Below, piece after piece: positions 1 through 37,762 of a stretch of 52,126 bases of DNA (position 1 is its first letter; each line of letters begins with the position of its first letter). A program made the position numbers and the translations under genes. The notes below the pieces were generated by a model. The model was given only the letters and a program-made list of their open reading frames with translations, was not told the origin of the DNA and made no database searches. The DNA is from Candidatus Liptonbacteria bacterium RIFCSPLOWO2_01_FULL_56_20 (GTDB lineage Bacteria > Patescibacteriota > Minisyncoccia > UBA6257 > 2-01-FULL-56-20): contig MHLC01000007.1 of assembly GCA_001818655.1 (NCBI GenBank), positions 1-52,126 of the forward strand, written 5' to 3'.

Positions 1-229
1 CTTCTAGGGCCTTGATCCAGTCCTCGTCCTCGCGGACAAGGATGCCCGGGAGGACGTGGATGCGGCCGCTGTCGGGCGCGGGAATGGCGGACAAGAATGC
101 CTCCGCCATTTTGCCGAGGAGGAGGAGCGGGTCAAACGGCGATCCGCCCTTTTTCCCTGCAGCTCGCTCCACTTTGCGTGCGGCGCGGGTGAATTCTTTC
201 ACCTGCTCCGCTGTCCAGTTATACGGCAT
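1..229 (-). CDS. hypothetical protein, N-terminal part (runs off window start)
   Basis: Minus-strand ATG at 229-227 (MPYNWTAEQVKEFTRAARKVERAAGKKGGSPFDPLLLLGK...), GGAGAAG SD-like motif 8 nt upstream, open to the window edge so absent from the ORF track. No family recognised. Confidence 0.4.
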   Translation of the reverse strand, partial: MPYNWTAEQVKEFTRAARKVERAAGKKGGSPFDPLLLLGKMAEAFLSAIPAPDSGRIHVLPGILVREDEDWIKALE

Positions 230-288
230 CGTCTCTTCTCCTTCGCCTGCCGCTCATCCCGCGGGATTGCGGGAACTTAGACAGGTCT

Positions 289-343
289 CTTGGTTGCACG
301 CCAAAGGGCTCAACAATATCAAGCCTTTTGGCGTACAACCAAG
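289..343 (-). promoter_or_regulatory. 22-bp leader hairpin in the 5' UTR of the downstream ORF
   Basis: CTTGGTTGCACGCCAAAGGGCT / AGCCTTTTGGCGTACAACCAAG with an 11-nt loop. The two non-Watson-Crick positions are G:U only in the minus-strand RNA. Confidence 0.4.
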
Positions 344-363
344 CATTATCAATGTGCGCATAT

Positions 364-392
364 ATTATAGCATATCCTGTCAAAAAACGCAA
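364..392 (-). promoter_or_regulatory. sigma70-like promoter (TTGCGT-N17-TATAAT)
   Basis: On the minus strand: -35 TTGCGT (392-387), 17-nt spacer, -10 TATAAT (369-364), about 130 nt upstream of the ATG at 229. Confidence 0.45.
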
Positions 393-477
393 GGGCTGGC
401 ATATCCCTGTCCCGCCCCACAAGCGAGAGTATCCTTTTGGGAGAACCATAAGCGGAGATTCATGCTAAATAACTAAT

Positions 478-621
478 GCGGAGGCTTTTGCTCTTGCGGA
501 AGCTCTCGCAGGCATTTTGAGCTTGGTTCCCGCCTTGGCGGGATCAAAATGCCGAGAGTGCAGGTGGTCAGCGGTCGCTGGAGCCGCTGAACCACCGGTT
601 CCGCAAGAGCAAAAGTCGGAG
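478..621 (+). repeat. family-A palindromic element, copy A1 (outer stem plus two internal hairpins)
   Basis: Ends pair over about 20 bp (479-501 with 599-620). Internal hairpins GGCATTTTGA...TCAAAATGCC and GGTGGTCAGCGG...CCGCTGAACCACC. Homologous to 14388-14533 and 31677-31810. Confidence 0.75.
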
Positions 622-1893
622 CTATTCGATCCCCTCGTACTCACGCACGGTAAGTTGAGAATTGATCTGCCGCATGGTTTCCAAGGCAACCGCAACCACG
701 ATAAGGAGCGCGGTGCCGCTTACGGTCAAGACCGAGAGCCCTGTCAAGCTTTGAATAAGAAGCGGGAGCACGGCGACGAGTCCGAGGAAGGTCGCGCCGA
801 AAAACGTCACGCGGTTCACGATCGCGGCAAAGAACTGCGCAGTCGCCTCGCCGGGCCTGATGCCCGGCACAAACCCCCCGCTCCGCTGGAGATTCTTTGA
901 CAGTTCCTCCGGATTAAAGGTGATCGCGGTATAGAAATACGTGAAGACCACGACCAGAATGAAATACGCCGCGCCGTACAAGAGACGATTATTCAACAGC
1001 TTCGTAACCAGCTCGTTGAACTTCAGCGCGAAATCAACCGAAACAATAGAAGTGATCTGCGCCAGGAATTGCGGGAACAGGAGCACCGAGATCGCGAAAA
1101 TCAGCGGTATCATGCCGGCCTGATTCACCTTGAGCGGCAGGTAGCTTGAAGCGCCGCCGTACATTTTGATGCCGCGCACTCTCCGCGCATAGGTGATCGG
1201 TATTTTTCTCTCGCCCTCGTTCAGATACACGACCCCGGCAACGAGCAGGACGAGCACGATCAAGAATCCGATATAGGTCGGCAGCAGGCTCGGCGTGTAG
1301 GAAGCGAACGCAAGCTGCGCATCTTGAGGAAGGCGGGAAACGATACCCGCCAAAATAATGAGCGACACGCCGTTCCCGATCTTTTGCTCGCTCACGAGCT
1401 CGCCAAGCCAAAGCGTGATCATGGAGCCCGCGGCGATCGCGAGCACGTTCGTCGCCAAACTGAACATGCTCGGCCTGTCGATCACGTTCTGCGCCACGAG
1501 AATATTCAAAAATCCGTACGCCTGGAGCAGAGCGAGGGGAACGGTGAGCATCCGCGAATACTGGTTGAACTTCGCCTGCCCGCGGCTCCCCTCCTCGTAG
1601 TACATCTGCTTGAACTTCGGGAAGATGATGGTCAAGAGCTGCATGATGATGGTGGCGGTGATGTAGGGGCCAACCCCAAGCATGGCGACCGACAAATTTT
1701 CGAGTCCGCCGCCGGAGAAAAGATTCAGGAAGCCCAAGAGCTGGTTGGAGCCGAAAAACGCCTCGAGCCGCGCCGCGTCCACGCCTGGGATGGGGATCGC
1801 GGCAAGGAGCCGGAACGCCACGAGGAGCCCGACCACGATCAAGACCTTTTTCCGGAGGTCTTTTACTTTAAATATCTGGAGAAAACGATTCAT
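622..1893 (-). CDS. secY: preprotein translocase subunit SecY
   Basis: 423-aa multi-TM protein with SecY-typical segments (GVGPYITATIIMQLL, EGERKIPITYARR). Follows rplO as in spc operons. Confidence 0.95.
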   Translation of the reverse strand: MNRFLQIFKVKDLRKKVLIVVGLLVAFRLLAAIPIPGVDAARLEAFFGSNQLLGFLNLFSGGGLENLSVAMLGVGPYITATIIMQLLTIIFPKFKQMYYEEGSRGQAKFNQYSRMLTVPLALLQAYGFLNILVAQNVIDRPSMFSLATNVLAIAAGSMITLWLGELVSEQKIGNGVSLIILAGIVSRLPQDAQLAFASYTPSLLPTYIGFLIVLVLLVAGVVYLNEGERKIPITYARRVRGIKMYGGASSYLPLKVNQAGMIPLIFAISVLLFPQFLAQITSIVSVDFALKFNELVTKLLNNRLLYGAAYFILVVVFTYFYTAITFNPEELSKNLQRSGGFVPGIRPGEATAQFFAAIVNRVTFFGATFLGLVAVLPLLIQSLTGLSVLTVSGTALLIVVAVALETMRQINSQLTVREYEGIE

Positions 1894-4329: not shown

Positions 4330-4842
4330 CTATTTTTTGAGCGGCACGCCGAGGCGGCGGTACGCATCTATTGCGGTCGCGCGCGATTTCTTGCGCGGTA
4401 CGATATTCACGCCCAGAGAGAAAATGAAAGGTGATTCTTCGGGGTTGATCTCCGGGAATACGAACTGCTCTCGAAATCCGATGTTCAATGCGCCCCCTTT
4501 ATCGATCGCGCTCGGGGCGATCCCGCTAAAGTCGCGTACGCGAGGCAATACTATTGTAATGAGGCGCGCGAAAAAATCAATCATTTTCCTGCCCCGTAAT
4601 GTCACGCTCACGCCGACGATCTGCCCTTGCCGTATCTTAAAACCGGCGATCGATTTTTTCGCGCGGCGCACCTGCGGGGCCTGTCCGGAGATGAGCGCGA
4701 GGTCGTGCTTGACCTGCACGAGCGCCTTTTCTTCAAAATTCGGCTGCTGACTCGCGCGACCCACGCCCGCATTCACGACGATCTTTTCGAGGAACTGCGG
4801 GGCGCCCGGGGTATTCGGTTGTGACCGAGGAGATGACGTCAT
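4330..4842 (-). CDS. rplE: 50S ribosomal protein uL5
   Basis: IVVNAGVG...GFREQFVFPEI; operon position. Confidence 0.93.
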   Translation of the reverse strand: MTSSPRSQPNTPGAPQFLEKIVVNAGVGRASQQPNFEEKALVQVKHDLALISGQAPQVRRAKKSIAGFKIRQGQIVGVSVTLRGRKMIDFFARLITIVLPRVRDFSGIAPSAIDKGGALNIGFREQFVFPEINPEESPFIFSLGVNIVPRKKSRATAIDAYRRLGVPLKK

Positions 4843-12193: not shown

Positions 12194-14299
12194 CTATTTT
12201 CTCTTCCCCTCGATGATGAGCTGGGCGATATTGTTCGGCACGGCTTCCCGGTGGCCGAACTCCATAGTGAAACTCCCCCGCCCCTGCGTCATGGAACGAA
12301 GCTGCGTCGCGTAACCGAACATCTCGGAGAGCGGAACTTTCGCGTCGATGACCTTCACGTTTCCGCGGTCGTTCATCGCTTCGATCTTCCCGCGACGCGC
12401 GTTCAAATCGCCGTTCACCTCGCCCAAGAATTCGAGCGGGGTGATCGCCTGCACGTTCATGATGGGTTCAAGGATGACCGGCTTTGCGCGCCGCGCCGCT
12501 TCCTGGAACGCGATGGAACCCGCGATCTTGAACGCCGCCTCGGACGAGTCAACCTCGTGGTAGGAACCGTCATAGAGCGTCGCCTCAACATCGACGACCG
12601 GATATCCTGCGAGCACGCCTTTGTCGGCGGCCTCTTTTACGCCTTTCTCGACCGCAGGGATGAACTCCTGCGGGATCACGCCGCCTTTGATGGCGTTCAC
12701 GAACTCTATCCCTTTGCCTCGCTCGAGCGGCTCGAGGCGGAGCCGCACGTGCCCGTATTGTCCGCGGCCGCCTGACTGACGGATGTATTTCCCTTCCGCC
12801 TCTGCGGCCGCATTGATGGTCTCTTTATAGGCGACCTGCGGCCGGCCGACATTCGCGGCGACGCTGAATTCACGCTTCATTCGATCAACGATGATCTCAA
12901 GATGGAGCTCTCCCATGCCCTGAATAATGGTCTCTCCTGTTTCCTGATCCCCGGATACGCGGAACGTCGGATCTTCCTCTGCCAGCCTGCGGAGCGCGAC
13001 CCCCATTTTCTCTTGGTCTGCCTTGGTCTTGGGCTCGATGCGAATGCCGATAACCGGCTCAGGGAATATGATCTTTTCAAGCACGATCGGCGCATCCGGG
13101 CTCGCAAGCGTATCTCCGGTCGTGGTGTTCTTGAGCCCCACGATCGCGGCGATCTCACCGGCATATACCTCTTCCACCTCTTCCCGCTGGTTCGCGTGGA
13201 GCCGCACCACCCTGCCGATCCGTTCCTGCTCATTCTTCGCGGTATTAAGAATATAAGAGCCGCGCTTTAAGACGCCGGAGTAGTTCCTTATATACGTAAG
13301 CGTTCCCACATACGGATCGGTCGCAATCTTGAACGCGAGCGCCGCGAACGGTTCGCTGTCCGACGGCGTGCGGCTCATCTCGGCGCCGGTCTTGGGGTCG
13401 GTCCCCGCAACCGGCGGGAGATCCAGGGGAGACGGCAGATAATCCACGACGGCATCCAGCACGAACTGTACGCCCTTGTTCTTCAGAGCCGACCCGCAGA
13501 GTATCGGCACGAGTTTGTTCTCAATCACCGCCCTCCGCAGGACGCGCCGCAGATCTTCAAGCGGCAGCGTTTTACCGTCCAGGTAGCGCGACATAAGCTC
13601 GTCGTCCGCGTCGGCGATCTGTTCGACCAGTCGATGACGGAATGCTTTTACCTCTGCCGCCATGCCTTCGGGGACGGAGATCTCCACGATGCGCTCGCCG
13701 TGCTCGCCGTGAAATTCAAACGCCTTCTCTTCCAAAAGATCCACCACGCCGGTGAATTCAGATTCTATCCCTATGGGGAGCTGGACCGGCACCGCATGCG
13801 CGGTCAGCCGCTCGTGGATAGACGCGAGGCTCTTCTCGAAGTTCGCGCCCATGCGGTCGAGTTTGTTGATGAAACAGACGCGCGGCACGCGATACTCGTC
13901 TGCATACCGCCAATTGGTCTCGGACTGCGGCTCCACGCCCGCCACGCCATCAAACACGACGACGGCGCCGTCCAGGACCCGGAGCGAACGCTTCACCTCG
14001 ACCGTAAAATCAATGTGGCCGGGCGTATCTATCAGGTTGACCCGGTGTTCGAATGCCTTGTCGCCGTGCCGATAGGTAGGGATCCAGAATGCGGTCGTGG
14101 CCGCCGAGGTGATGGTGATCCCCCGTTCTCGTTCCTGTTCCATCCAATCCATCACGGTCGTCCCCTCGTGTACTTCGCCGATCTTATGGGACACGCCGGT
14201 ATAGAAAAGCACACGCTCGGAGACCGTGGTCTTCCCTGCATCAATATGGGCGATAATGCCTATGTTGCGAACTTTTTCTATTGGGTATTGTCGAGGCAT
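12194..14299 (-). CDS. fusA: elongation factor G
   Basis: 701 aa; [22 protein letters not shown] GTPase motifs. Confidence 0.96.
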
Positions 14300-14314
14300 G
14301 GGATGTTAACTTGT

Positions 14315-14582
14315 GGCGCAGACCCCTCCTTTCCGCTACCGCTCAAGCTCCCCGGCGAGAGCTTTCGCTGACGATTCGGCCTCGCTCGCTCCGCCTTTTG
14401 GTTTACGGGAAGCTGTCGGAGGCGTCAAAAGCTCGGCCTCCGATCGCGATCGGAGTTTTGACGCCGAGATGCAGGCGGCGGTTCGCCGCAGGAGCGAACC
14501 GAACGCCGGTTCCCGGAAGCCAGAAGGCGGAGCATCGCACCCGCTCGGCCTCATAGCCGCGCGGGGAAAAGGGGTCTGCGTC
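14315..14582 (-). repeat. long-range inverted repeat (arms 14315-14336 and 14561-14582) enclosing copy A2
   Basis: GGCGCAGACCCCTCCTTTCCGC versus the reverse complement of GCGGGGAAAAGGGGTCTGCGTC. About 17-18 of 22 positions pair. Three of the four non-Watson-Crick positions are G:U only in the minus (mRNA) sense. Confidence 0.5.
14388..14533 (+). repeat. family-A palindromic element, copy A2
   Basis: Outer stem GCTCCGCCTTTTGGTTTACGGGAA / TTCCCGGAAGCCAGAAGGCGGAGC. Hairpins GGCGTCAAAA...TTTTGACGCC (with CTCCGATCG/CGATCGGAG inside) and GGTTCGC...GCGAACC. Shares conserved blocks with A1 and A3. Confidence 0.75.
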
Positions 14583-14607
14583 AGCTCTGCCATATCCATT
14601 CCAGATC

Positions 14608-15075
14608 TCATTGCGCGAAGTGGGCGAAAGCTCGGTTGGATTCAGCCATTCGGTGCGTATCCTGCTTTTTCTTGATGGCCGCGCCCTCGTTCTTTGATGC
14701 GGCGATGAGTTCGTCGGCGAGCTTGGCTGCCATGGGCTTCCCTTTCTTCGCGCGGGCCGCATTGATGAGCCAGCGGCTTCCCAAGATGAACCGCCGCTCC
14801 GGCCTGACCTCGCGCGGCACCTGATAGTTCGCGCCTCCGATCCGCCGCGAAGCGACTTCGAGCATCGGCGAAACGTTCTGGAGCGCTTTTTCGAAAACCG
14901 CAAGCGGGCTCTGCTTGGTCTCTTTTTCCACGCGCGCAAGCGCGTCATAGACAACCCGTTCGGCAATGGATTTCTTGCCGTCCCGCATCACGTAATTAAT
15001 GAAACGGCCGAGATCTATACGGCTGTGCTGCGGGTCTGGCTCGTGGTACTTTTTGTATACGCGCTTTTTTCTCAT
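14608..15075 (-). CDS. rpsG: 30S ribosomal protein uS7
   Basis: 155 aa, ...GANYQVPREVRPERR...NRAFAHF. Confidence 0.95.
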   Translation of the reverse strand: MRKKRVYKKYHEPDPQHSRIDLGRFINYVMRDGKKSIAERVVYDALARVEKETKQSPLAVFEKALQNVSPMLEVASRRIGGANYQVPREVRPERRFILGSRWLINAARAKKGKPMAAKLADELIAASKNEGAAIKKKQDTHRMAESNRAFAHFAQ

Positions 15076-16413: not shown

Positions 16414-16485
16414 GCCCCTGTAGTGAAATGGATATCACGCGACGCTTCGGACGTCGTATTCCGGGTTCGAATCCTGGCGGGGGCG
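16414..16485 (+). tRNA. tRNA-Arg (anticodon UCG)
   Basis: Hand-folded cloverleaf: acceptor GCCCCTG/CGGGGGC, D stem GTGA/TCAC, anticodon stem CGACG/CGTCG with loop CTTCGGA, T arm CCGGG-TTCGAAT-CCTGG. CCA is not encoded. Confidence 0.9.
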
Positions 16486-16545
16486 CAATGCCAAAACGGG
16501 TTCCCGCTCCAAACACGTTGGAGCGAGGCTCGCCCTATCGGGCGG

Positions 16546-16564
16546 CGAATCCTGGCGGGGGCGC
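16546..16564 (+). repeat. exact 19-nt duplicate of the tRNA-Arg 3' end (T-loop to discriminator)
   Basis: CGAATCCTGGCGGGGGCGC occurs at 16468-16486 and again at 16546-16564. The copies are separated by a 59-nt hairpin-rich insert. Confidence 0.8.
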
Positions 16565-16626
16565 CGTGAACCGCGCGCGTCATATGCGCCTTTTGATGCA
16601 GACAAGGGCGACCCGCCCTGCGTAAC

Positions 16627-16666
16627 GATAAAAGCAAAACGGGCGCTATGTTGCTCGCGCCCGTTT
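16627..16666 (-). terminator. intrinsic terminator of the small ORF
   Basis: Minus strand: AAACGGGCGC-10 nt-GCGCCCGTTT followed by TGCTTTTAT. Confidence 0.6.
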
Positions 16667-16773
16667 CTTGATGGAATGAAGCTCGCTCAGCGCCTGTGCC
16701 GCACGAACGGGCGCGATACTGCTTACTCCCGTTTCTTGGTGGGACGGCGCTCGCGGAGCGCCTGTGCCGCACG
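16638..16773 (-). repeat. diverged tandem duplication (2 x 68 nt, about 80 % identity) covering the ORF 3' end and terminator
   Basis: Units 16638-16705 and 16706-16773 align base for base (AACGGGCGC...CCCGTTTCTTG...GCTCGC..AGCGCCTGTGCCGCACG). Confidence 0.7.
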
Positions 16774-17889: not shown

Positions 17890-20091
17890 ATGTTCACGCT
17901 CGACACCCCTCTTGCGCGCATCGCGGGAATCGGTCCGGGCTTTCTCGCCAAACTCAAGCACCTTGGCGTCGCGACCATCGGCGACCTGCTCTATCATTTT
18001 CCGACCCGCTACGAAGATTTTTCGCAGATCTACCGCATTGCCGACCTTGAACCGGGTCAGCACGCGACCATCCAAGGGACGGTGGAAGAGATAACGACGC
18101 GGCGGACATGGCAGAAACACTTCATCGTAGTCGAGGCGACTGTCCGTGACGACTCCGGCTCCACCCGCATCATCTGGTTCAACCAGCCCTATATCAAGAA
18201 CATTCTCCGGCCCGGGCGGCTCGCTAATTTTTCCGGCAAAGTCGCCGTCTCGCAAGACGAGCTCTACCTCAGCCACCCCACGTTCGAACCCGTTTCCGGG
18301 GATGCGCGCGATGAAACCCGGCATACCGCCCGCCTCGTGCCCATCTACCCGGAGACGCGCGGCCTTACCTCGAAAGGGATCCGCTACCTCATACAGCCGA
18401 TCCTCAAGGGGCTCGCGCGACCTCCGGAATGGCTGCCCGGCGCCGCGCTCCGCATGAACCGCCTCCCCGAACTGCATCACGCGCTCCAGGACGTTCATTT
18501 CCCTGAACGGATCGAGGACGCGCTCGCCGCGAAAAGGCGCTTTGCGTTCGAGGACCTGTTTTTGCTCCAGCTTGAAAACTTCGCTCAAAAAATGAAGCTC
18601 GCGAGGACGCGCGCGGTCCAGATCAAAACCGATATTCCCCTCCTCAAGCGGATCATCGCAGAACTTCCGTTCGCGCTGACCGCTTCGCAAAAACGGTCGC
18701 TCTGGGAGATCCTGCAGGACCTTGAAAAGGGCCGCCCCATGAACCGGCTCCTCCAGGGCGATGTCGGCTCGGGGAAAACCGTGGTCGCCGCTCTTGCGGC
18801 AATAAGCGCGGCGGAGAACGGGCGCGAGACCGCCATTATGGCGCCAACCGAAGTGCTCGCACGCCAGCATTTTGAAACGTTCAAGAAATTATTCAGCCAT
18901 ATCTCCGCGGTCCGTGAACCCAAAATCGCGCTCATGACCGCGAGCGACACGAAACTATTCTACGAGAACGGCCTTGAGTCCCCGGTAAAAAAAGGAGAGC
19001 TGCGGGAGAAAGTGAGACGCGGCGAGATACCGATCGTCATCGGCACGCACGCGCTTCTCGAAGAATCGGTCCGCTTCAAATCGCTCGGCCTCGTGGTGAT
19101 TGACGAACAGCACCGTTTCGGCGTGGAGCAGCGTGCCGCGCTAAGCCGAGACGCGCGATCCGGCCGCCGCGCGAAAGCGACGTTCACCCCCCACTTTTTG
19201 AGTATGTCCGCGACCCCTATCCCCCGAACGCTCATGCTTACGGTATTCGGCGACCTCGATATTTCGACCATCACCGAACTGCCTGCCGGCCGCAAAAACA
19301 TCGTGACGAAAATCGTGGCGCCGGAGAACCGTCCCAAGGCGTACGAATTCATCCGCGAACAGATCGCGCGCGGCCGCCAAGCGTTCGTCATCTGCCCGCG
19401 CATAGAGAAGCCGGAGCAAGACGGGGCGGAGAAATCTTTTCGCGCCCGCGAATGGAGCGCGCTCGAGGTAAAATCCGTAAAAGAAGAGTTCGAAAAACTT
19501 TCGACAACGGTCTTCCCCGATCTCCGCGTCGCCATGCTGCACGGCCAGATGCCCGCCTCGTCGAAGACGAGGCGAGGTCTCGCCTCCGGCGGAAAACCAA
19601 ACAAAGAGCAAGTTATGCGCGATTTCAAAGACGGAGCAACCGATGTCCTTGTTTCCACGTCGGTCATAGAGGTCGGCGTGGATGTGCCGAATGCCGTGAT
19701 CATGATGATAGAAGGGGCGGAACGGTTCGGCCTGGCCCAGCTCTACCAGTTCAGGGGGCGCGTGGGGCGCGGCGAACACCAGTCGTTCTGCTTCCTGTTC
19801 ACCGAATCCGGCGCGAAAAGCACGCACGAACGGCTCCGCGCGATCGTCGAGGCGAAGAACGGCTTTGAGCTCGCAGAGATTGACCTAAAGCTCCGCGGCC
19901 CCGGCGAATTCTTGGGCGAGCGGCAGACAGGGCTCCCTGATATCGCGATGCGCGGGCTCCAAGACGTGGAACTCATCAAGGCAAGCCGCGCTTCCGCGCT
20001 CCGCGTAATCCAAGAAGACCAGCATCTCAACCGTTATCCCGCGCTACAATTGAAGCTTGCGGAGTTCCAGAAAAAACTCCATCTCGAATAA
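17890..20091 (+). CDS. recG: ATP-dependent DNA helicase RecG
   Basis: 733 aa; GDVGSGKT Walker A, DEQHRFG, SATPIPRTL, TSVIEVGVDVPNA, QFRGRVGRG. Confidence 0.93.
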   Translation: MFTLDTPLARIAGIGPGFLAKLKHLGVATIGDLLYHFPTRYEDFSQIYRIADLEPGQHATIQGTVEEITTRRTWQKHFIVVEATVRDDSGSTRIIWFNQPYIKNILRPGRLANFSGKVAVSQDELYLSHPTFEPVSGDARDETRHTARLVPIYPETRGLTSKGIRYLIQPILKGLARPPEWLPGAALRMNRLPELHHALQDVHFPERIEDALAAKRRFAFEDLFLLQLENFAQKMKLARTRAVQIKTDIPLLKRIIAELPFALTASQKRSLWEILQDLEKGRPMNRLLQGDVGSGKTVVAALAAISAAENGRETAIMAPTEVLARQHFETFKKLFSHISAVREPKIALMTASDTKLFYENGLESPVKKGELREKVRRGEIPIVIGTHALLEESVRFKSLGLVVIDEQHRFGVEQRAALSRDARSGRRAKATFTPHFLSMSATPIPRTLMLTVFGDLDISTITELPAGRKNIVTKIVAPENRPKAYEFIREQIARGRQAFVICPRIEKPEQDGAEKSFRAREWSALEVKSVKEEFEKLSTTVFPDLRVAMLHGQMPASSKTRRGLASGGKPNKEQVMRDFKDGATDVLVSTSVIEVGVDVPNAVIMMIEGAERFGLAQLYQFRGRVGRGEHQSFCFLFTESGAKSTHERLRAIVEAKNGFELAEIDLKLRGPGEFLGERQTGLPDIAMRGLQDVELIKASRASALRVIQEDQHLNRYPALQLKLAEFQKKLHLE
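19554..19592 (+). repeat. 39-nt in-frame palindromic insertion in recG
   Basis: CGCCTCGTC-GAA-GACGAGGCG (perfect 9-bp stem) overlaps a second hairpin, GAGGCGAG-GT-CTCGCCTC. It encodes 13 aa absent from the HGxM...EKxxVM segment of E. coli RecG. Confidence 0.6.
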
Positions 20092-20676: not shown

Positions 20677-22314
20677 TCAATTCTTCCTGCAAAATACCAC
20701 GTTCAGATATGGCGGGAGATTGCTCACCGTATCCAGCGTGTGGCTGTGGCCGCCGTCAAGCGTCGCCGCGAGATTTACTCCGTGGTTATGAGGCGCGCTT
20801 TGGGGGTCTGTTACGCCGGAAATATTATGGCGATGAGCCGGAGAGTCAGTATAGTCGAAAGTGCCGGCCGCCCACGTAGAAGACCATGGACCGCCCCATC
20901 CATCGCCGCTTACAAAATTCACGCCGTGAGAATGCCATGCGTCTTCGACGGTCGTGACGCCGGTTACCATATGAGAGTGGTTCGGGGCGGCGCTCACGGT
21001 GTGGCTGTGGCTTGCGGCGCCGCCTGTTCCGCCGTACGCTGACGCGCCCTGCGGAAACCTGCCGTCAAGCGCGGCAAACCGCGTCCACCCCGAAGGACAG
21101 CTTGCATCAAACATCGCGATTAAGCCGCTTGGGATCGCTGCTCCTCCTGCGGCCGCAGTGGTCTGGAGCGTGCCGTCAGGGAACCTGATGCCGTCCACGC
21201 CCGCGGCCCCGCCGATCTGAAGTTTTGCGGTTGCCGACCCGCCTGTCCCGATGCCCACATTTGTGCCGTTGTCATAAATAATGCTGTTGCCGACAACGGT
21301 TCCTGCGGTGAACTTCGCCACGAAATTCGCGGTCCCGGAACCGCCCAGCCCGGCAGATGCGGCAGATGACTGAAGCGAACCGTCTGGGAACCGCACGCCG
21401 CCGGAAGTGGTTTTGATCTCTCCTTGGACAGTAAGCGTGCTTGTGGGATTCACGGTGCCGATGCCGACGTTGCCGCCAATCGTAATGTATGCGCGCGTTG
21501 CATCTCCTGCCCGCAGAGCCAGCGCCCTTGTGCCGTCGCCGCTCGCTAAATCTCCTACGTAAACAGCGGAGGCGTCAGAATCCAGAGCTGCCTGGCCCCT
21601 CAGCGCGATGGCGCCGTTCACATCCAGTTTCTGGCTTGGCGCGTCCGTCCCGATGCCGACGCTACCGGCAGCAGTTATTCTTGCCGTCTCTGAAGGGATA
21701 CCTATGCCGGTGCCGGTATGGAAACTTATGATCCCGGGGGTTGTGGCATGCGTCCCTCCGAACATCCTGATGGTGCCTCCACCGTATGTTGCGCCTCCTC
21801 CGCCAACCTCAAGTAAGCTGGCTGAATTTGCGTGACCTACTGCAGTAGTATATACACTGCCGCTAATTTGAGCGCTGCCTAAAACATGTAATTTTTGAGC
21901 CGGCACCGTCGTTCCGATACCGACATTGCCTGCCGCGTTTATGGCGAACGCGTCCGCGCTTTGATTCTGAAGCACGAACGTGCCGTCGGTGCCGAGCCGG
22001 AAAATAGCCGAAGCAGCCGCTCCGCGGGAGAGCCGGAACAAGGAATCCCCGGTGTCATTCTGAATCTGGAGACCGTATACGTTGGTCGGCCCGGCAAGCA
22101 CGTAGAGCCTGCTCGTTGCAGAGGGCGAGATGCCGATGCTCAAGTTGCCTTGGGCGTCGGTTGCGACCGCGCCAGAACCCGTCCCTCCGGATGTTGACGG
22201 GCCGACAAACGCGCCTGCCTGGATTGCGGCATACAAAAGACCGAGCGCGAGCGCGCCCCCAAGCAGCCAAACGAACCGCTTGCCCCTAACAAATGCCGTG
22301 GATGCCTGGTTCAT
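20677..22314 (-). CDS. secreted or anchored tail-fibre-like repeat protein with a C-terminal HxH-rich domain
   Basis: 545 aa, N-terminal signal/anchor. Repeated GNVGIGTxxPxxKLxVxG motifs. Six HxH motifs in the last 110 aa or so (SHSHTV, NHSHMV, WHSHGV, AHRHNI, PHNHGV, GHSHTL). Confidence 0.7.
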   Translation of the reverse strand: MNQASTAFVRGKRFVWLLGGALALGLLYAAIQAGAFVGPSTSGGTGSGAVATDAQGNLSIGISPSATSRLYVLAGPTNVYGLQIQNDTGDSLFRLSRGAAASAIFRLGTDGTFVLQNQSADAFAINAAGNVGIGTTVPAQKLHVLGSAQISGSVYTTAVGHANSASLLEVGGGGATYGGGTIRMFGGTHATTPGIISFHTGTGIGIPSETARITAAGSVGIGTDAPSQKLDVNGAIALRGQAALDSDASAVYVGDLASGDGTRALALRAGDATRAYITIGGNVGIGTVNPTSTLTVQGEIKTTSGGVRFPDGSLQSSAASAGLGGSGTANFVAKFTAGTVVGNSIIYDNGTNVGIGTGGSATAKLQIGGAAGVDGIRFPDGTLQTTAAAGGAAIPSGLIAMFDASCPSGWTRFAALDGRFPQGASAYGGTGGAASHSHTVSAAPNHSHMVTGVTTVEDAWHSHGVNFVSGDGWGGPWSSTWAAGTFDYTDSPAHRHNISGVTDPQSAPHNHGVNLAATLDGGHSHTLDTVSNLPPYLNVVFCRKN

Positions 22315-26314: not shown

Positions 26315-26722
26315 TTAGAACCTTACCCTCCAGAACGTATCAAGAGAGAACCAGCCGCCGCCCTGCGTCAAAAGCAAAAGCGCCGCGGCGAGCAAAATGA
26401 TGTCCAGTTCAATGCCGCCGATCAAGGGCTCGTGCCGCAAGAATTTCCAGACCGTGATCGCGAGAAATTCGACGCCGAAAAGTCCGGCGGCAACTTGCGT
26501 TGCGAACCCAACTGCGATGGCAAGTCCGCCGAACGATTCAAGGATCGCGGCGAGCGGCCCGAAGACCACTCCCGGCTTGAACCCCATCGCCTCGAAATCC
26601 CGGCTCGTGCCGCGCAAATTCCTTAGCTTCGGCAAACCGTGGGCGATAAGGATCGCGCCAAGCACGAGCCGCAGGACGAGTATCGCGTGGTCGTTATATA
26701 AGAGAAAGAATTGCGAGATCAT
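26315..26722 (-). CDS. DoxX family membrane protein
   Basis: 135 aa, 4 TM, LRLVLGAILIAHGLPKL DoxX-type N-terminus. Confidence 0.8.
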   Translation of the reverse strand: MISQFFLLYNDHAILVLRLVLGAILIAHGLPKLRNLRGTSRDFEAMGFKPGVVFGPLAAILESFGGLAIAVGFATQVAAGLFGVEFLAITVWKFLRHEPLIGGIELDIILLAAALLLLTQGGGWFSLDTFWRVRF

Positions 26723-28993: not shown

Positions 28994-29009
28994 CTATGCT
29001 ATAGCATAG
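28994..29009. repeat. perfect 16-bp palindrome CTATGCTATAGCATAG (downstream of the TrpR-like gene)
   Basis: Read directly from the sequence. Embedded in a larger CTCGTTTC...GAAACGAG inverted repeat. Confidence 0.85.
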
Positions 29010-29093
29010 CGGCGAAACGAGACCAAACATTTAAGAACCCTTACGAGATCAAAGCCTCGTGCCGTATCCCGCCGCTATACTGCAGCATGACGC

Positions 29094-29669: not shown

Positions 29670-31955
29670 ATGCCCGACCTCGGCCCGCGCTACGAGCACA
29701 AAGAGATCGAGGAGAAAATTTATCGGCTTTGGGAACGGTCCGGGTATTTTAACCCGGATAATTTGCCTGACGCGCACAAACGCAAGCCCTATTGCATCAT
29801 AATGCCGCCGCCGAACGCGAACGGCCCGCTTCATATCGGCCACGCGCTTTTCGTAACCTTAGAAGACATTATGATCCGCTACTCGAGGATGCGCGGCAAG
29901 CGCACGCTCTGGCTGCCTGGCGCAGACCACGCCGGATTTGAAACCCAGGTGGTCTTTGACGGGAAACTGGAAAAAGAGGGGCGGAATCGCTTTACCATGA
30001 ACCGCGATGCGCTGTGGAAAGAAATGTGGGATTTTACGCAAGAGAATAAAAAGACTATGGAAGCGCAGCTGCGCAAGCTCGGCGCGTCCTGCGATTGGTC
30101 ACGGGAAGTGTTCACCCTGGAGCCGAGGGTGGTCGAGCAGGTGTATGCGACGTTCAAGAAAATGCACGACGACGGCCTCGTGTACCGCGATCTGCGCGTG
30201 GTGAACTGGTGCCCAAAACACAGAACCGCACTTTCCGATTTGGAAGTGAAATATGTGGAGAAAACCGACCCGCTCTACTACATCAAGTACGGGCCGCTCA
30301 CCTTGGCCACGGTCCGGCCGGAAACCAAGTTCGGCGACACCGCGCTCGCCGTAAATCCAAAAGACAAGCGTTATCAGAAATACGTCGGAAAAACCATAGA
30401 GGCGAAAGGGGTCTTGGGTCTGCTCACGTTCAAGGTGATCGCGGACGAAGCAGTAGACCCGCATTTTGGCACGGGCGTGGTCAAGGTCACTCCGGCGCAC
30501 GACCAAGCCGACTACGAGATCTGGCAACGGCACAAGAACGAGATCCCGGGTCCGAAAACCATCATCGGCGAGGACGGCCGGCTTACGGACGAAACCGGGA
30601 AGTTCAAAAGACTAAAAGTCGCTGAGGCGCGGGCGCGCGTCGCAGAAGCGATACAGAAGATCGGCATACTGGAGAAAGTTGACCCGAACTACGTCCACCA
30701 AGTCGCGACGTGCTATAAATGCGGCTCTACCTTGGAACCCTTGCCAAAACCGCAGTGGTTCGTAAAGATGCAGCCGCTCGCAAAAAAAGCGATCGCCGCT
30801 GCGCAAAAAATCAAATTCTTCCCATCGCACTCCAAAAAGGTCTACCTCCACTGGCTAAAAAACATCCGCGACTGGAACATTTCCCGGCAAATCGTCTGGG
30901 GCATACGCATCCCGGCATGGTTTAGGAGGAACGAGATCGCGATCAGCGCGGAGAGTCCTGGACCCGGCTGGCAGCAAGACCCCGACGTGTTTGACACTTG
31001 GTTCTCGTCCGGGCAGTGGCCCTTCATTGCTTTGGGCTTTAAAGAAGGTGGCAAATCCCGACGCAAGGTCGGGACTCCGATCCCGACGCCGACTCCGGGT
31101 CGGGACGTCGGCGCCGAAGCGTCGGAGGATTATAAAACCTTTTACCCGACCGACGTGATGGAAACCGGCTACGATATCCTGTTTTTCTGGGTGACACGGA
31201 TGGTCATGTTCGGCCTCTACCGCACCGGGAAAGTCCCGTTCAAGGCAGTATATCTCCACGGCTTGGTGCGCGATAAAGACCGGCAGAAAATGTCCAAATC
31301 AAAAGGCAACGTGATCGACCCCCTTGGCGTTGCCGATACCTACGGCACGGATGCAGTGCGGATGGCGCTCGTCGCCGGCAACACTCCCGGAAAAGATACT
31401 GCTATTTCCGAGGACAAAATCCGGGCGTATAGGAATTTCGCGACCAAGGTCTGGAATATCGCGCGATTTATCCTTATGCATAAGCCCGGCCGGGCGGTAA
31501 AGCCAGTCCTCTCTGCCGCCGACCGCACGCATATTGCCCACGCGCAAAAGGTAAAATCCCAGGTCGCGAAGCATATAGAAAAATTCGAATTTCACCTCGC
31601 GGCAGAAAAAACCTACCACTACATCTGGCATACGTTTGCGGACAAGATCATAGAGGAATACAAGCCGCGACTTAGAGCCGCAGCAAGCCCTGAGGAAGCT
31701 CTCGGAGTCGCGCCGGGCTTGGTCTCCGAAGGAGCCGGCGCGCCGAGAGCGCAGGCGGTCGGCGGCCGCCGGAGCCACCGAACCGCCGGTTCCGAAGAGC
31801 TTGCTGCGGCGGAAAATCAAGCAGCTGCTTACCATACCCTGGAAACGATTCTTATAGAATGCCTCACCATGCTCCACCCGTTCATGCCGTTCATCACCGA
31901 AGAGATCTTCCGCAACCTCCGCCCCCGCTCTCTTCTTATGGTTCAGCCGTGGTGA
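29670..31955 (+). CDS. valS: valyl-tRNA synthetase (short form)
   Basis: PPPNANGPLHIGHAL (HIGH), WLPGADHAGFETQ (ValRS-type), KMSKSKGN. 761 aa including two inserted repeat-encoded segments. Confidence 0.88.
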   Translation: MPDLGPRYEHKEIEEKIYRLWERSGYFNPDNLPDAHKRKPYCIIMPPPNANGPLHIGHALFVTLEDIMIRYSRMRGKRTLWLPGADHAGFETQVVFDGKLEKEGRNRFTMNRDALWKEMWDFTQENKKTMEAQLRKLGASCDWSREVFTLEPRVVEQVYATFKKMHDDGLVYRDLRVVNWCPKHRTALSDLEVKYVEKTDPLYYIKYGPLTLATVRPETKFGDTALAVNPKDKRYQKYVGKTIEAKGVLGLLTFKVIADEAVDPHFGTGVVKVTPAHDQADYEIWQRHKNEIPGPKTIIGEDGRLTDETGKFKRLKVAEARARVAEAIQKIGILEKVDPNYVHQVATCYKCGSTLEPLPKPQWFVKMQPLAKKAIAAAQKIKFFPSHSKKVYLHWLKNIRDWNISRQIVWGIRIPAWFRRNEIAISAESPGPGWQQDPDVFDTWFSSGQWPFIALGFKEGGKSRRKVGTPIPTPTPGRDVGAEASEDYKTFYPTDVMETGYDILFFWVTRMVMFGLYRTGKVPFKAVYLHGLVRDKDRQKMSKSKGNVIDPLGVADTYGTDAVRMALVAGNTPGKDTAISEDKIRAYRNFATKVWNIARFILMHKPGRAVKPVLSAADRTHIAHAQKVKSQVAKHIEKFEFHLAAEKTYHYIWHTFADKIIEEYKPRLRAAASPEEALGVAPGLVSEGAGAPRAQAVGGRRSHRTAGSEELAAAENQAAAYHTLETILIECLTMLHPFMPFITEEIFRNLRPRSLLMVQPW
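31056..31127 (+). repeat. family-B hairpin element, copy B2: 72 nt, codon-aligned inside valS
   Basis: TCCCGACGC...GCGTCGGAG with internal GTCGGGA/TCCCGAC arms and the CGGGACTCCGA core. Encodes SRRKVGTPIPTPTPGRDVGAEASE. Confidence 0.7.
31677..31810 (+). repeat. family-A palindromic element, copy A3: about 135 nt in-frame inside valS
   Basis: Outer stem GCCGCAGCAAGC/GCTTGCTGCGGC. Conserved blocks GAAGCTCTCGGAG, GCTTGG, GCCGAGAGCGCAGGCGGTC, GGAGCC, GAACCGCCGGTTCC. Encodes AAASPEEALGVAPGLVSEGAGAPRAQAVGGRRSHRTAGSEELAAA. Confidence 0.75.
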
Positions 31956-36718: not shown

Positions 36719-37762
36719 ATGATCGAACTCGTACTTTCTCTCATCTTCGTTGCGGTTGCGGTAGGCGCTTATTTTTTGTGGCGGCTTTTTGAGGGTCGGC
36801 GGCCGAAAGAAGGCGACCAATCACTCATCATGCTGCAGAATCAGATAAGCGAGCTCACGCGGACGCTTGATATGAAGCTCGGCGAATCCACTAAGGCGAT
36901 ACAGGCGCAATTCGGACACTCGACGCGGATCATCGAAAACGTCACGGAGCGGCTCGCGAAACTTGATGAGACCAACCGCCAGGTGGTCAATTTCGCGGAC
37001 CAGCTCAAAAACCTCCAGGATATCCTCAAAAACCCGAAACAGCGCGGTATCCTCGGCGAATACTACCTCGAGACCGTCCTCAAGAACGTCCTGCCCCCAG
37101 GGAGCTACCAGATGCAGTACCCGTTCAAAAGCGGAGATATTGTCGACGCCGTAATTTTCTACCAAGAGAGGGTCATCCCGGTCGACTCGAAATTCAGCCT
37201 GGAGAACTACAACCGGCTCCTCGAGGCGAAAACCGATACAGACCGCAAACGCTTTGAAGACCTCCTCCGCACCGACCTCAAGAACCGCATCGATGAGACG
37301 GCGAAGTACATCCGGCCCGCGGAAGGCACGATCGAATTCGCATTCATGTTCATCCCCTCGGAAGCGCTCTACTATGACCTCCTCGTGAACAAAGTAGGCG
37401 CGGTCAATGCGAGGGACCTCGTAGAATACGCCGCGGGAGAGAAGCGCGTCTTCATTGTCTCGCCCACCTCGTTCCTCGCGTACCTGCAGACCGTGATCCA
37501 AGGTCTCCGGCAGGTGGAGATCAATAAATCCGCGGAACAGATCCGGAAGAACATCGGCGAACTCGCCCGGCACCTCGGCAACTACGACGCATTTTTAGAG
37601 AAACTCGGTACGCACCTCGGCACGTCGGTCAATATGTACAACAAGGCCTATAAAGAATTCGGCAAGATCGACAAGGATGTGTTGAGGATCACGGGAAAAC
37701 CCATAGGCATCGAGCCGGTGGCGCTCGACGCTCCGCAGCAAGGAGAAGACACCGAATCCTAG
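36719..37762 (+). CDS. rmuC: DNA recombination protein RmuC
   Basis: N-terminal TM, coiled coil, RmuC nuclease-like core (...PDAVI...VIPVDSKF...FMFIPSEALY). Confidence 0.88.
   Translation: MIELVLSLIFVAVAVGAYFLWRLFEGRRPKEGDQSLIMLQNQISELTRTLDMKLGESTKAIQAQFGHSTRIIENVTERLAKLDETNRQVVNFADQLKNLQDILKNPKQRGILGEYYLETVLKNVLPPGSYQMQYPFKSGDIVDAVIFYQERVIPVDSKFSLENYNRLLEAKTDTDRKRFEDLLRTDLKNRIDETAKYIRPAEGTIEFAFMFIPSEALYYDLLVNKVGAVNARDLVEYAAGEKRVFIVSPTSFLAYLQTVIQGLRQVEINKSAEQIRKNIGELARHLGNYDAFLEKLGTHLGTSVNMYNKAYKEFGKIDKDVLRITGKPIGIEPVALDAPQQGEDTES

Follow-up and report, generated by a model that had tools for sequence, protein, structure and literature searches.

The 52,126-nt window, the whole stretch of Candidatus Liptonbacteria DNA analyzed here, carries exactly three copies of a palindromic element (Table 1) that belongs to a family spanning several Patescibacteria lineages. 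The stems of the element covary, whereas nucleotides in its junction and loops are fixed across the family. Copies were found in-frame within genes whose orthologues lack them, and a site that is filled in the window is empty in several relatives. The family is probably a non-autonomous, trans-mobilized, DNA-level element that is defined by its fold and is functionally similar to the Rickettsia palindromic elements (RPEs).

Copies of the element in the window

All three copies share a three-way junction, in which an outer stem (P1) closes two hairpins (P2 and P3). The first-pass annotation had proposed three copies with this architecture at these places. Folding, arm complementarity and a covariance model located each of them there, with the outer stem and both internal hairpins, and the short conserved blocks that it listed were all present across the three. 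Its bounds for copy 1 (478-621) do enclose the element, but the folded unit spans 483-617 and the rest consists of a few unpaired bases. Compared with dinucleotide shuffles, on both strands, the copies folded with z scores of -5.0 to -8.4, and 0 of 200 shuffles folded as well. The core pattern matched the window three times, always at a copy, with 0.00 matches expected by chance. The covariance model, run with its filters off, also returned only these three copies (125.5 to 137.9 bits), and the next-best match (20.5 bits) was the reverse strand of copy 2. The alignment of the window copies had a mean column identity of 74%, and the copies of one genome were only ~65 to 74% identical to each other. 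The stems differed between copies yet stayed complementary, as had been noticed at first reading: 28 of the 55 predicted pairs were changed on both sides and still paired.

Copy 1 is antisense to secY, with 4 nt separating the end of its 3' arm from the complement of the stop codon of that gene. A SecY protein identical to that of the window is encoded on GCA_001818545.1. The arms at 485-501 and 599-615 are 100% complementary over 17 nt, and two further pairs extend the stem to the full arms listed in Table 1. P2 has an internal loop, GCA/GA, and a stem at 511-520/544-553 that is variable. Its asymmetric loop GCTTGGT (521-527) is conserved, and its distal hairpin (528-543) is absent in some family members. 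The distal part of P2 is dispensable, because it is absent in L072. P3 carries the conserved loop CGCTGGAG (576-583) and a bulge on its 3' strand.

Copy 2 lies in a spacer of 308 nt. The ORFs on its two sides, both on the minus strand (14608-15075 and 12194-14299), are putatively rpsG and fusA, as judged from their size and operon position. The arms of copy 2 (14388-14411/14510-14533) are 24 nt long and 88% complementary. The flank alignment placed it in a "long form" subfamily with the conserved flanks CTCGGCCTCGCTC ... GCACCCGCTCGGCCTC. It lies inside a larger palindrome, since an outer inverted repeat encloses it. The arms of copy 3 (31677-31697/31790-31810) are 21 nt long and 86% complementary. 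In agreement with its proposed in-frame position in valS, copy 3 begins on a codon boundary and contains no stop codon.

Table 1. Positions of the element copies, their parts and associated genes in the window.
Feature	Coordinates	Strand	Evidence or remark
Copy 1, whole palindromic element, three-way junction	483..617	+	Fold -86.2 kcal/mol, z -7.1; covariance model 134.8 bits
Copy 1, P1 5' arm, GGCTTTTGCTCTTGCGGAA	483..501	+	Inner GGAA conserved in the family, remainder copy-specific
Copy 1, P1 3' arm, TTCCGCAAGAGCAAAAGTC	599..617	+	
Copy 1, hairpin P2	502..561	+	Conserved base GC-T-CTC / GAG-T-GC
Copy 1, hairpin P3	563..596	+	Conserved base GGyGG/CCrCC, variable stem
secY	622..1893	-	ORF; PF00344 (SecY) on identical protein; stop codon 622-624, then copy 1
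Copy 2	14388..14533	+	Covariance model 137.9 bits; fold z -8.3; flank alignment
Outer inverted repeat around copy 2	14314..14583 (14314-14336 / 14561-14583)	.	23 nt, 78%; DNA fold
valS (ValRS, 761 aa), host of copy 3	29670..31955	+	E 1.9e-153 to Thermus thermophilus ValRS 1gax
Copy 3, whole palindrome, in-frame and sense in valS	31677..31810	+	Covariance model 125.5 bits; fold
Copy 3 segment absent from valS orthologues	31683..31805	+	41 codons, 123 nt; ends inferred, +/-1-2 codons

Family members, conserved motifs and covariation

We scanned one genome per species with a first pattern made of the middle and 3' blocks, which returned 30 loci. Three of them were true copies, in a Saccharibacteria MAG (L001), a Liptonbacteria MAG (L027) and a 9.7-kb contig binned as Pseudomonadota (L007); the others were chance matches in GC-rich genomes. 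A stricter pattern applied to metagenome contigs gave 26 true copies among 28 loci, mostly from groundwater (Hainich and Rifle-type samples). A covariance model (R1) built from 20 copies detected further copies that the patterns had not selected, namely the second to fourth copies in L032, L034, L045 and L055. It also detected copies in Liptonbacteria DNA that had been fetched only through SecY homology, one in L070 and two in L072. This SecY-anchored DNA held 3 copies in 131 kb, and the window holds 3 in 52 kb. The pattern-selected Patescibacteria loci gave 32 strong matches of 87 to 140 bits. Extending the model beyond the window, as the first-pass annotation had suggested, yielded about 30 further distinct copies in other Patescibacteria DNA. 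The hosts are named Saccharibacteria, Liptonbacteria, Paceibacterota or Patescibacteria, and groundwater metagenomes are also represented. Most copies are 134 to 150 nt long, in keeping with the ~100 to 150 bp of the repeated unit in RPEs.

Extrapolated from the counts in the window and the SecY-anchored DNA, a carrier genome of ~1 Mb would contain tens of copies, and some relatives may lack the element altogether; no copy was present in several 20-kb samples from related genomes. Clustered and truncated copies, which count in favor of a mobile element, were observed in L045, and an nhmmer search for further partial copies, which might mark cleavage points, found none besides one seen by eye in the same locus. 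L036 resembles a chimera joined through a copy.

At gathering score, Rfam (release 15) matched only four tRNAs in the window, and with E values up to 10 it returned only noise (11 to 17 bits, compared to gathering scores of 34 to 90). The consensus was thus, as initially supposed, not that of a named family, even at permissive thresholds. Searches of plasmid and phage collections showed no similarity to the element. Two pattern scans of IMG/VR viral contigs returned 0 and 2 loci, and the covariance model rejected both of the latter; a viral origin was rejected on the zero accepted copies in IMG/VR. We found no earlier description of the element in the literature.

A GC-rich background yields many short inverted repeats, which would favor a chance palindrome. 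However, the core pattern was found three times in the window with none expected, the 32 covariance-model matches are strong, and identical copies are present in independent JGI, ENA and NCBI assemblies, which speaks against an assembly artefact. Chance, artefact and a protein-coding module (see below) are already refuted and have virtually no probability left. These data support the family as a real repeat.

Among the 32 aligned copies, 93.4% of the cells were paired, as opposed to 64.2% with shuffled partners and 37 to 49% with partners slid by 1 to 3 columns. The covariation score was 0.743, compared to 0.188 for shuffled partners and 0.13 to 0.17 for partners slid by 1 to 3 columns, and double-sided changes were found at 47 of the 55 pairs. 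The excess of pairing over shuffled partners bears out the earlier argument from compensatory change for selection on the fold.

The junction and loop motifs fixed across the family are GAAGCTnTCGgAG, GCTyGG, CGAGAG-GCAG, CGCTGGA and CGGTTC. Ten copies outside the pattern selection keep them as GAAgcTcTCGgAg, GCTnGG, CGAGAg-gcAg, CGCtGGA and CGGTTC; in extended form, these ten copies read TTT..aaGAAgcTcTCGgAg, GCTnGGt, CGAGAg-gcAg, CGCtGGA and Ac...CGGTTCt..AAa. The conserved core of ~100 nt consists of P2 and P3 with their fixed junction and loop nucleotides, ~35 positions, and the T-tract/A-tract beside the junction is conserved as well. The outer stem is 18 to 26 nt per arm in most copies. 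Its sequence is copy-specific, the termini being the most variable part of the element, and left arms matched the right arms of other copies with a mean score of only 5.8, compared to 17.7 for the observed partners.

Filled and empty sites and copies within genes

The site behind secY is filled in the window, L070 and L072, each time antisense to the gene and no more than ~5 nt from the stop codon. The same site is empty in L069, L071, L073, L074 and L075, in which SecY is 78 to 82% identical to that of the window; in L069 and L073, secY is followed by adk after 10 to 38 nt. The SecY tree is star-like, and copies at this shared site resemble each other no more closely than copies at different sites do. 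In the same-site copies of the three lineages the loops are conserved, and 18 to 29 pairs differ by double changes. Between the window and L070 copies, 29 pairs were changed on both sides and 2 on one side, with an identity of 71% at unpaired and 41% at paired positions. The post-secY copies represent either an old insertion with its fold and loops kept or a site that was struck repeatedly.

The main rival to mobility is a function for the host, because the loops have been retained at fixed loci. The palindrome would be a domesticated structural DNA site, one that spread selfishly in the past and now serves the host, as proposed for REP/BIME. As such, it might be bound or processed by a nucleoid, topoisomerase, replication-restart or recombination protein. 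The core motifs kept across phyla and in same-site copies (identity of 69 to 74% at unpaired and 41 to 53% at paired positions), the conserved T-tract/A-tract beside the junction and the old, divergent copies within a genome are consistent with such a role, as is the near-symmetric, DNA-like mismatch spectrum described below. However, close relatives manage without a copy at the same site, several of the 20-kb samples from related genomes hold none, a useful role is hard to imagine for copies that lie within genes for essential enzymes, and no partner protein is known. We consider a domesticated site unlikely.

Four of the ~26 loci have a copy in-frame within a gene. The extra residues number 41 in ValRS (window copy 3, sense), about 40 in MnmA (L049, antisense), about 52 in an HDAC-like deacetylase (L007, sense) and about 40 in a class-V aminotransferase, the NifS-like desulfurase (L027, antisense). 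Residues 483-671 and 718-761 of the window ValRS align to 471-660 and 662-705 of the T. thermophilus chain, and the segment between the two blocks is extra because the T. thermophilus protein aligns on both sides of it. The insert is absent in 18 Patescibacteria orthologues, which are 42 to 62% identical to the window fragment in the alignment, and the spacing from RLR to AAAY is 7 residues in most ValRS orthologues as opposed to 48 in the window ValRS. An AlphaFold2 model computed with the ValRS alignment placed the insert, mostly as coil, between two confident helices (pLDDT of 57 to 61, compared to 93 to 99 for the helices). For MnmA, residues 8-134 and 182-410 align to 9-138 and 148-363 of 2hma. 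The MnmA, HDAC-like and NifS-like proteins are ~40 to 52 residues longer than solved homologues, the NifS-like insert being judged against what we take to be the size of E. coli IscS.

All four intragenic copies keep the host frame and are free of stops. Together they use three frames of the element and both orientations, whereas intergenic copies contain stops in many frames. This difference is what selective survival of a translated insert predicts. About half of the copies are open in a typical frame, and one length in three keeps the frame, giving a chance of ~1/6 for each copy and ~0.001 for all four. The simplest reading is that intragenic copies are translated and that only open, frame-keeping insertions survive, an argument already established for RPEs (PMC10969869).

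It is very improbable that the element is instead an intervening sequence, intron-like, excised by RNase III or bypassed like mitochondrial "byp" elements, that never appears in protein. The long outer stem joins the flanks, as in bulge-helix-bulge or RNase III substrates, and Patescibacteria are known for insertions in rRNA genes. However, the absence of stops and the frame-keeping would be needless in a sequence that is removed. Furthermore, a single recognized RNA motif is impossible, because intragenic copies occur in both orientations relative to the gene. A protein-coding module is not consistent with these copies either. When the ValRS insert peptide was compared with 1.84 billion representative proteins, one weak match was obtained and judged to be low-complexity. 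With three frames in use and the ValRS peptide without relatives, no encoded peptide is conserved.

Probable DNA-level maintenance and mobility, and related elements

The first-pass annotation had offered RNA or single-stranded or cruciform DNA as options for the fold; the mismatches in the stems favor a palindrome at the DNA level over a folded RNA. In a non-redundant set, the stems were ~95% strict Watson-Crick, with 38 G.T, 22 A.C and 49 other mismatches, and the ratio of G.T to A.C on the defined + strand was 38:22 (p about 0.05). In the redundant set, wobble pairs had seemed strongly strand-asymmetric (41:20 overall and 22:5 among antisense copies), but near-duplicates had inflated these ratios, and only the weak 38:22 was left once they were removed. 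Functional RNAs typically tolerate G.U far more than A.C, and the near-symmetric spectrum fits a palindrome kept at the DNA level. Such upkeep could mean that both strands or a DNA hairpin must fold, or that the arms correct each other.

Likewise in favor of DNA, copies lie in either orientation with respect to host genes, about two-thirds being antisense in a rough tally from ORF maps. A single operon of L072 has both orientations, and copies of both orientations lie within 1 kb of each other in L045 and L034. The window copies are all on one strand, and the GC skew is uniformly negative. An orientation fixed by replication was rejected as a strict rule, since L072, L045 and L034 carry both orientations within 1 to 10 kb.

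A structured RNA would act in cis as a 3'-end stabilizer, terminator or regulator, or be a small RNA gene or ribozyme on the strand of the element. The covariation, the purine-rich internal loops (GGA/GA) among the conserved loops and the single junction A look RNA-like, many copies lie directly past stop codons, and the slight G.T excess on the + strand points the same way. However, the orientation is mixed, even within one operon, and four copies lie in ORFs in both orientations. No promoter-like or intrinsic-terminator-like sites were found around window copies 1 and 2, and no U-tail follows the stem in either orientation. In addition, A.C mismatches are nearly as common as G.U, and Rfam gave zero families even at the most permissive threshold. 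We regard an RNA function as quite unlikely.

The flanks showed no consistent direct repeats or target-site duplications, only copy 1 having CGGAG on both sides, and flank comparison revealed no conserved motif 5' of the stem or at the insertion point. In the absence of conserved termini and target-site duplications, the element is not a classical MITE, and it is not assignable to a transposase class. In the four genes, the palindrome is longer than the inserted segment (134 versus 123 nt, ~145 versus 120, ~136 versus 120 and ~179 versus 156), and the pairs at the outer end of the stem seem to come from the host gene itself. These host flanks form short inverted repeats of their own, GCCGCa|GCGGC in valS and GTTCGCCGA|TCCGACGAAC in mnmA; with the extra ValRS segment placed as in Table 1, the GCCGCa and GCGGC stem pairs that flank it would be native valS sequence. 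Copies in L053, L007 and L052, in addition to window copy 2, are nested in larger palindromes. These few cases, four alignments of which three are to distant homologues and leave 2 to 3 residues uncertain, suggest a preference for insertion at the dyad of existing inverted repeats. An origin of the outer stem from an inverted target duplication was rejected, as both arms count as native in the ValRS and MnmA alignments.

Consistent with the first-pass statement that the window lacks a transposase, a Pfam scan of 30 window ORFs gave no match to a transposase, integrase, HUH, Y1_Tnp or reverse transcriptase family. Eighteen of the 30 belong to housekeeping or other non-mobile families, including RecG, RmuC, FtsZ/FtsA, HisRS, TsaD and the type IV pilus ATPase and platform protein, and 12 had no match. 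Among ORFs adjoining copies elsewhere, the only finds were a DUF4145 protein and an HNH protein of 84 aa in L072 and, in the window lineage, a PaaX/Cas2-like protein. No autonomous IS with matching ends was found in the window, the plasmid and phage collections or the viral contigs.

Considering these features, we propose that a unit of ~120 to 150 bp, a two-hairpin core closed by the T-tract/A-tract and a copy-specific outer stem of 18 to 25 bp, would be copied or moved in trans, by an enzyme whose gene lies elsewhere in the genome. The enzyme would recognize the core by its fold, most likely in the form of DNA (a hairpin or cruciform) and not as RNA, and would insert the unit at the center of short pre-existing inverted repeats, so that the stem would extend into host sequence and some copies would come to lie inside larger palindromes. 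Only harmless insertions would persist. Some of these would sit in tiny intergenic spacers, often a few bases past a stop codon. Others would be in-frame at positions that encode protein surface loops and would be translated as a disordered loop of ~40 to 50 residues. Stem complementarity would be kept either by a need to fold for further mobility or by correction of one arm against the other in the folded palindrome.

Against the trans-mobilized element, no mobilizing enzyme was found among the scanned ORFs, only a small HNH gene lies beside one copy, in L072, and the low identity of copies within a genome shows no sign of a recent burst. The conserved loops of same-site copies also resemble purifying selection at a fixed locus, to which a decaying, purely selfish element would not be subject, unless they stem from independent hot-spot insertions or from homogenization by gene conversion. 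With a low but appreciable probability, the element is the substrate of a novel structure-guided integration system of Patescibacteria, in which an enzyme would read a two-hairpin DNA or RNA core and direct it to the dyad of any short inverted repeat with neither terminal repeats nor target duplication, or a structured nucleic acid kept by hosts across phyla for a function of their own. The latter would explain fixed loops at a given locus while the stems turn over.

The first-pass annotation had named RPEs and REP/MITE-type repeats as the nearest analogies. The analogy to RPEs stood, in that the insertions in ValRS, the NifS-like protein, MnmA and the HDAC-like protein are in-frame, stop-free and absent from orthologues, but the defining features of classical MITEs and of REP/REPIN elements were not found. 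RPEs are in-frame, stop-free palindromic inserts in unrelated housekeeping genes and are tolerated in surface loops (PMC10969869). Like RPE-1 to RPE-10, the present elements are palindromic repeats of 100 to 150 bp in a reduced genome, both intergenic and in-frame in genes, with no associated transposase known. RPEs have a whole-element sequence consensus and a conserved encoded peptide, whereas here only junction and loop nucleotides are conserved, the stems covary and three frames are used with no common peptide. The host phylum differs and the family spans several Patescibacteria lineages, the comparison of the two groups being one of their descriptions.

REP/REPIN-RAYT systems resemble the family in that they are short palindromic repeats, abundant in intergenic DNA and without target duplications, and are thought to act as folded single-stranded DNA recognized by a single-copy enzyme encoded elsewhere. 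However, REPs are 20 to 40 bp long and carry a conserved GTAG/CGTC tag (PMC3733652), which is absent from the present ~140-nt three-way junction. Two REPs make up a REPIN, a simple long hairpin, and REPs are extragenic, whereas 4 of the ~26 loci here are intragenic. No RAYT (Y1_Tnp) gene was present among the scanned ORFs of the window. Classical MITEs (Correia/NEMIS, ERIC, RUP and QMITE) are also small, non-autonomous and stable stem-loops that sometimes form in-frame fusions. Their terminal inverted repeats are conserved from copy to copy, and they have target-site duplications and a parent IS to which they are related. In the present element, the termini are the most variable part, no duplications were seen and a parent IS is not known.

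The IS200/IS605-derived PATEs likewise have two conserved hairpins, which here might correspond to left- and right-end hairpins bound by a TnpA dimer. They share the lack of terminal inverted repeats and target duplications and a single-strand DNA logic. Unlike PATEs, the present element has no conserved tetra- or pentanucleotide 5' of the insertion site and no strict orientation, and it has a long closing stem, which PATEs lack, with no tnpA or tnpB seen. IS1397 and ISKpn1 insert into the loops of REP palindromes and thus share the apparent preference for the center of pre-existing palindromes. However, they are full-length IS3-family elements with a transposase gene and 3- to 4-bp duplications, neither of which is found here. 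The GC clusters and double-hairpin elements of fungal mitochondria are also small and GC-rich, with one or two hairpins, an unknown route of mobility and both intergenic and genic locations. They are organellar, shorter (~30 to 80 nt), unrelated in sequence and without a closing stem. The variable ends of the present element do not contain the R''/R' boxes (RYYYAAC ... GTTRRRY) of integron attC sites. We file the element as a new variety among small palindromic mobile elements.

The genomes of Patescibacteria are tiny and streamlined, with supposedly little repetitive or selfish DNA. A palindrome that occurs across phyla, even inside ValRS, MnmA and cysteine desulfurase, runs against this view. 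After Rickettsia, it is a second and independent example of in-frame palindromes being tolerated in a reduced genome. Since the stems covary while ~35 nucleotides are fixed from Saccharibacteria to Liptonbacteria, the family is a clean substrate for phylogenetic profiling of a partner enzyme, and it can be used to examine whether insertion targets hairpin dyads. Furthermore, the covariance model can flag inserts that give rise to inflated protein lengths, spurious ORFs and possible breaks in metagenome assemblies.

The secY-adk interval and genes near the element

In the lineage of the window, the interval between secY and adk contains two ORFs in addition to copy 1, the element copy beside the secY stop codon. 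One of them (204 aa) had no Pfam hit, and the other (171 aa) was PaaX_M/Cas2-like. In L069 and L073, two related Liptonbacteria loci that lack a copy after secY, adk directly follows secY. The space separating copy 1 from the next gene on the minus strand (start near 229) holds a long, almost perfect hairpin, cttggttgcacgccaaagggct...agccttttggcgtacaaccaag; the covariance model of the element recognized only a bare stem in this window hairpin, with a score of 17.7 bits.

L072, a relative that carries a post-secY copy, has genes for a DUF4145 protein and an 84-aa HNH endonuclease inserted on the upstream side of rplC, with an element copy about 250 nt away. Because this is a single case, the adjacency is not evidence of linkage. 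The window itself encodes RecG, a helicase acting on branched DNA, and RmuC, a protein that has been associated with inversions at short inverted repeats. As the two genes are common, they provide context only.

Positions of the features described in the text
Feature	Locus	Position	Basis
Part of secY-adk interval	window	1-476	
secY-adk interval	L059	4665-5946	
secY-adk interval	L060		
Hairpin beside copy 1	window	285-348	
DUF4145 and HNH genes	L072	1-1421	
recG	window	17890-20091	
rmuC	window	36719-37762	
tRNA	window	16414-16485	
tRNA 3' end / its repeat	window	16462-16489 / 16540-16567	
68-nt tandem units	window	16638-16773	
Partial third match to the unit	window	20984-21019	
Further inverted repeats	window	4560-4670, 26601-26671, 28996-29088	
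Outer palindrome of copy 2	window	14314-14336 / 14561-14583	
Subfamily flanks at copy 2	window	14373-14387 (left), 14534-14556 (right)	flank alignment
Copy cluster	L045	1-1200	
Paired copies	L032	4724-4864, 5945-6082	
Copy compared with the second L032 copy	L036	751-892	

Other repeats in the window

The 3' end of a tRNA recurs 78 nt downstream with 79% identity; a tRNA 3' fragment duplicated in this way is what an integrated element usually leaves behind. Elsewhere, two 68-nt units in tandem are 81% identical, each with the hairpin AACGGGCGC...GCGCCCGTT, and a third match is partial. The further inverted repeats, with arms of 19-25 nt, are unrelated to the element family, and the covariance model gave only about 8 bits for those at window positions 4564-4667 and 28996-29089.

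Extended and clustered copies, and possible module exchange

Copy 2 is surrounded by a 23-nt inverted repeat that forms a second, outer palindrome, and outer palindromes of this kind were also found around element copies at three other loci (L053, L007 and L052). Additional flanks (left, CTCGGCCTCGCTCGC; right, GAGCACCGTGCCCGCTCGGCCTC) are common to a subfamily comprising copy 2 and copies in L048, L052, L032 and L036, and these conserved flanks include a direct repeat of CTCGGCCTC. The subfamily may represent a longer composite element.

L045 carries five copies, four complete and one truncated, within 1.1 kb and in both orientations. They lie in low-complexity, CT-rich DNA, and a pilin-like gene with an N_methyl motif follows downstream; L034, L051 and L054 are grouped with this cluster. 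Together the copies make a 391-codon stretch without stop codons, which is probably spurious.

To the right of the element, locus L036 is identical to L032 at its second copy, but to the left the two loci differ. The coverage of L036 is low, and this contig is probably a chimeric assembly whose parts were joined via the element repeat. Within L032, two copies spaced 1.2 kb apart have near-identical outer stems (P1) and first hairpins (P2) but a wholly different second hairpin (P3), which suggests module exchange between element copies.
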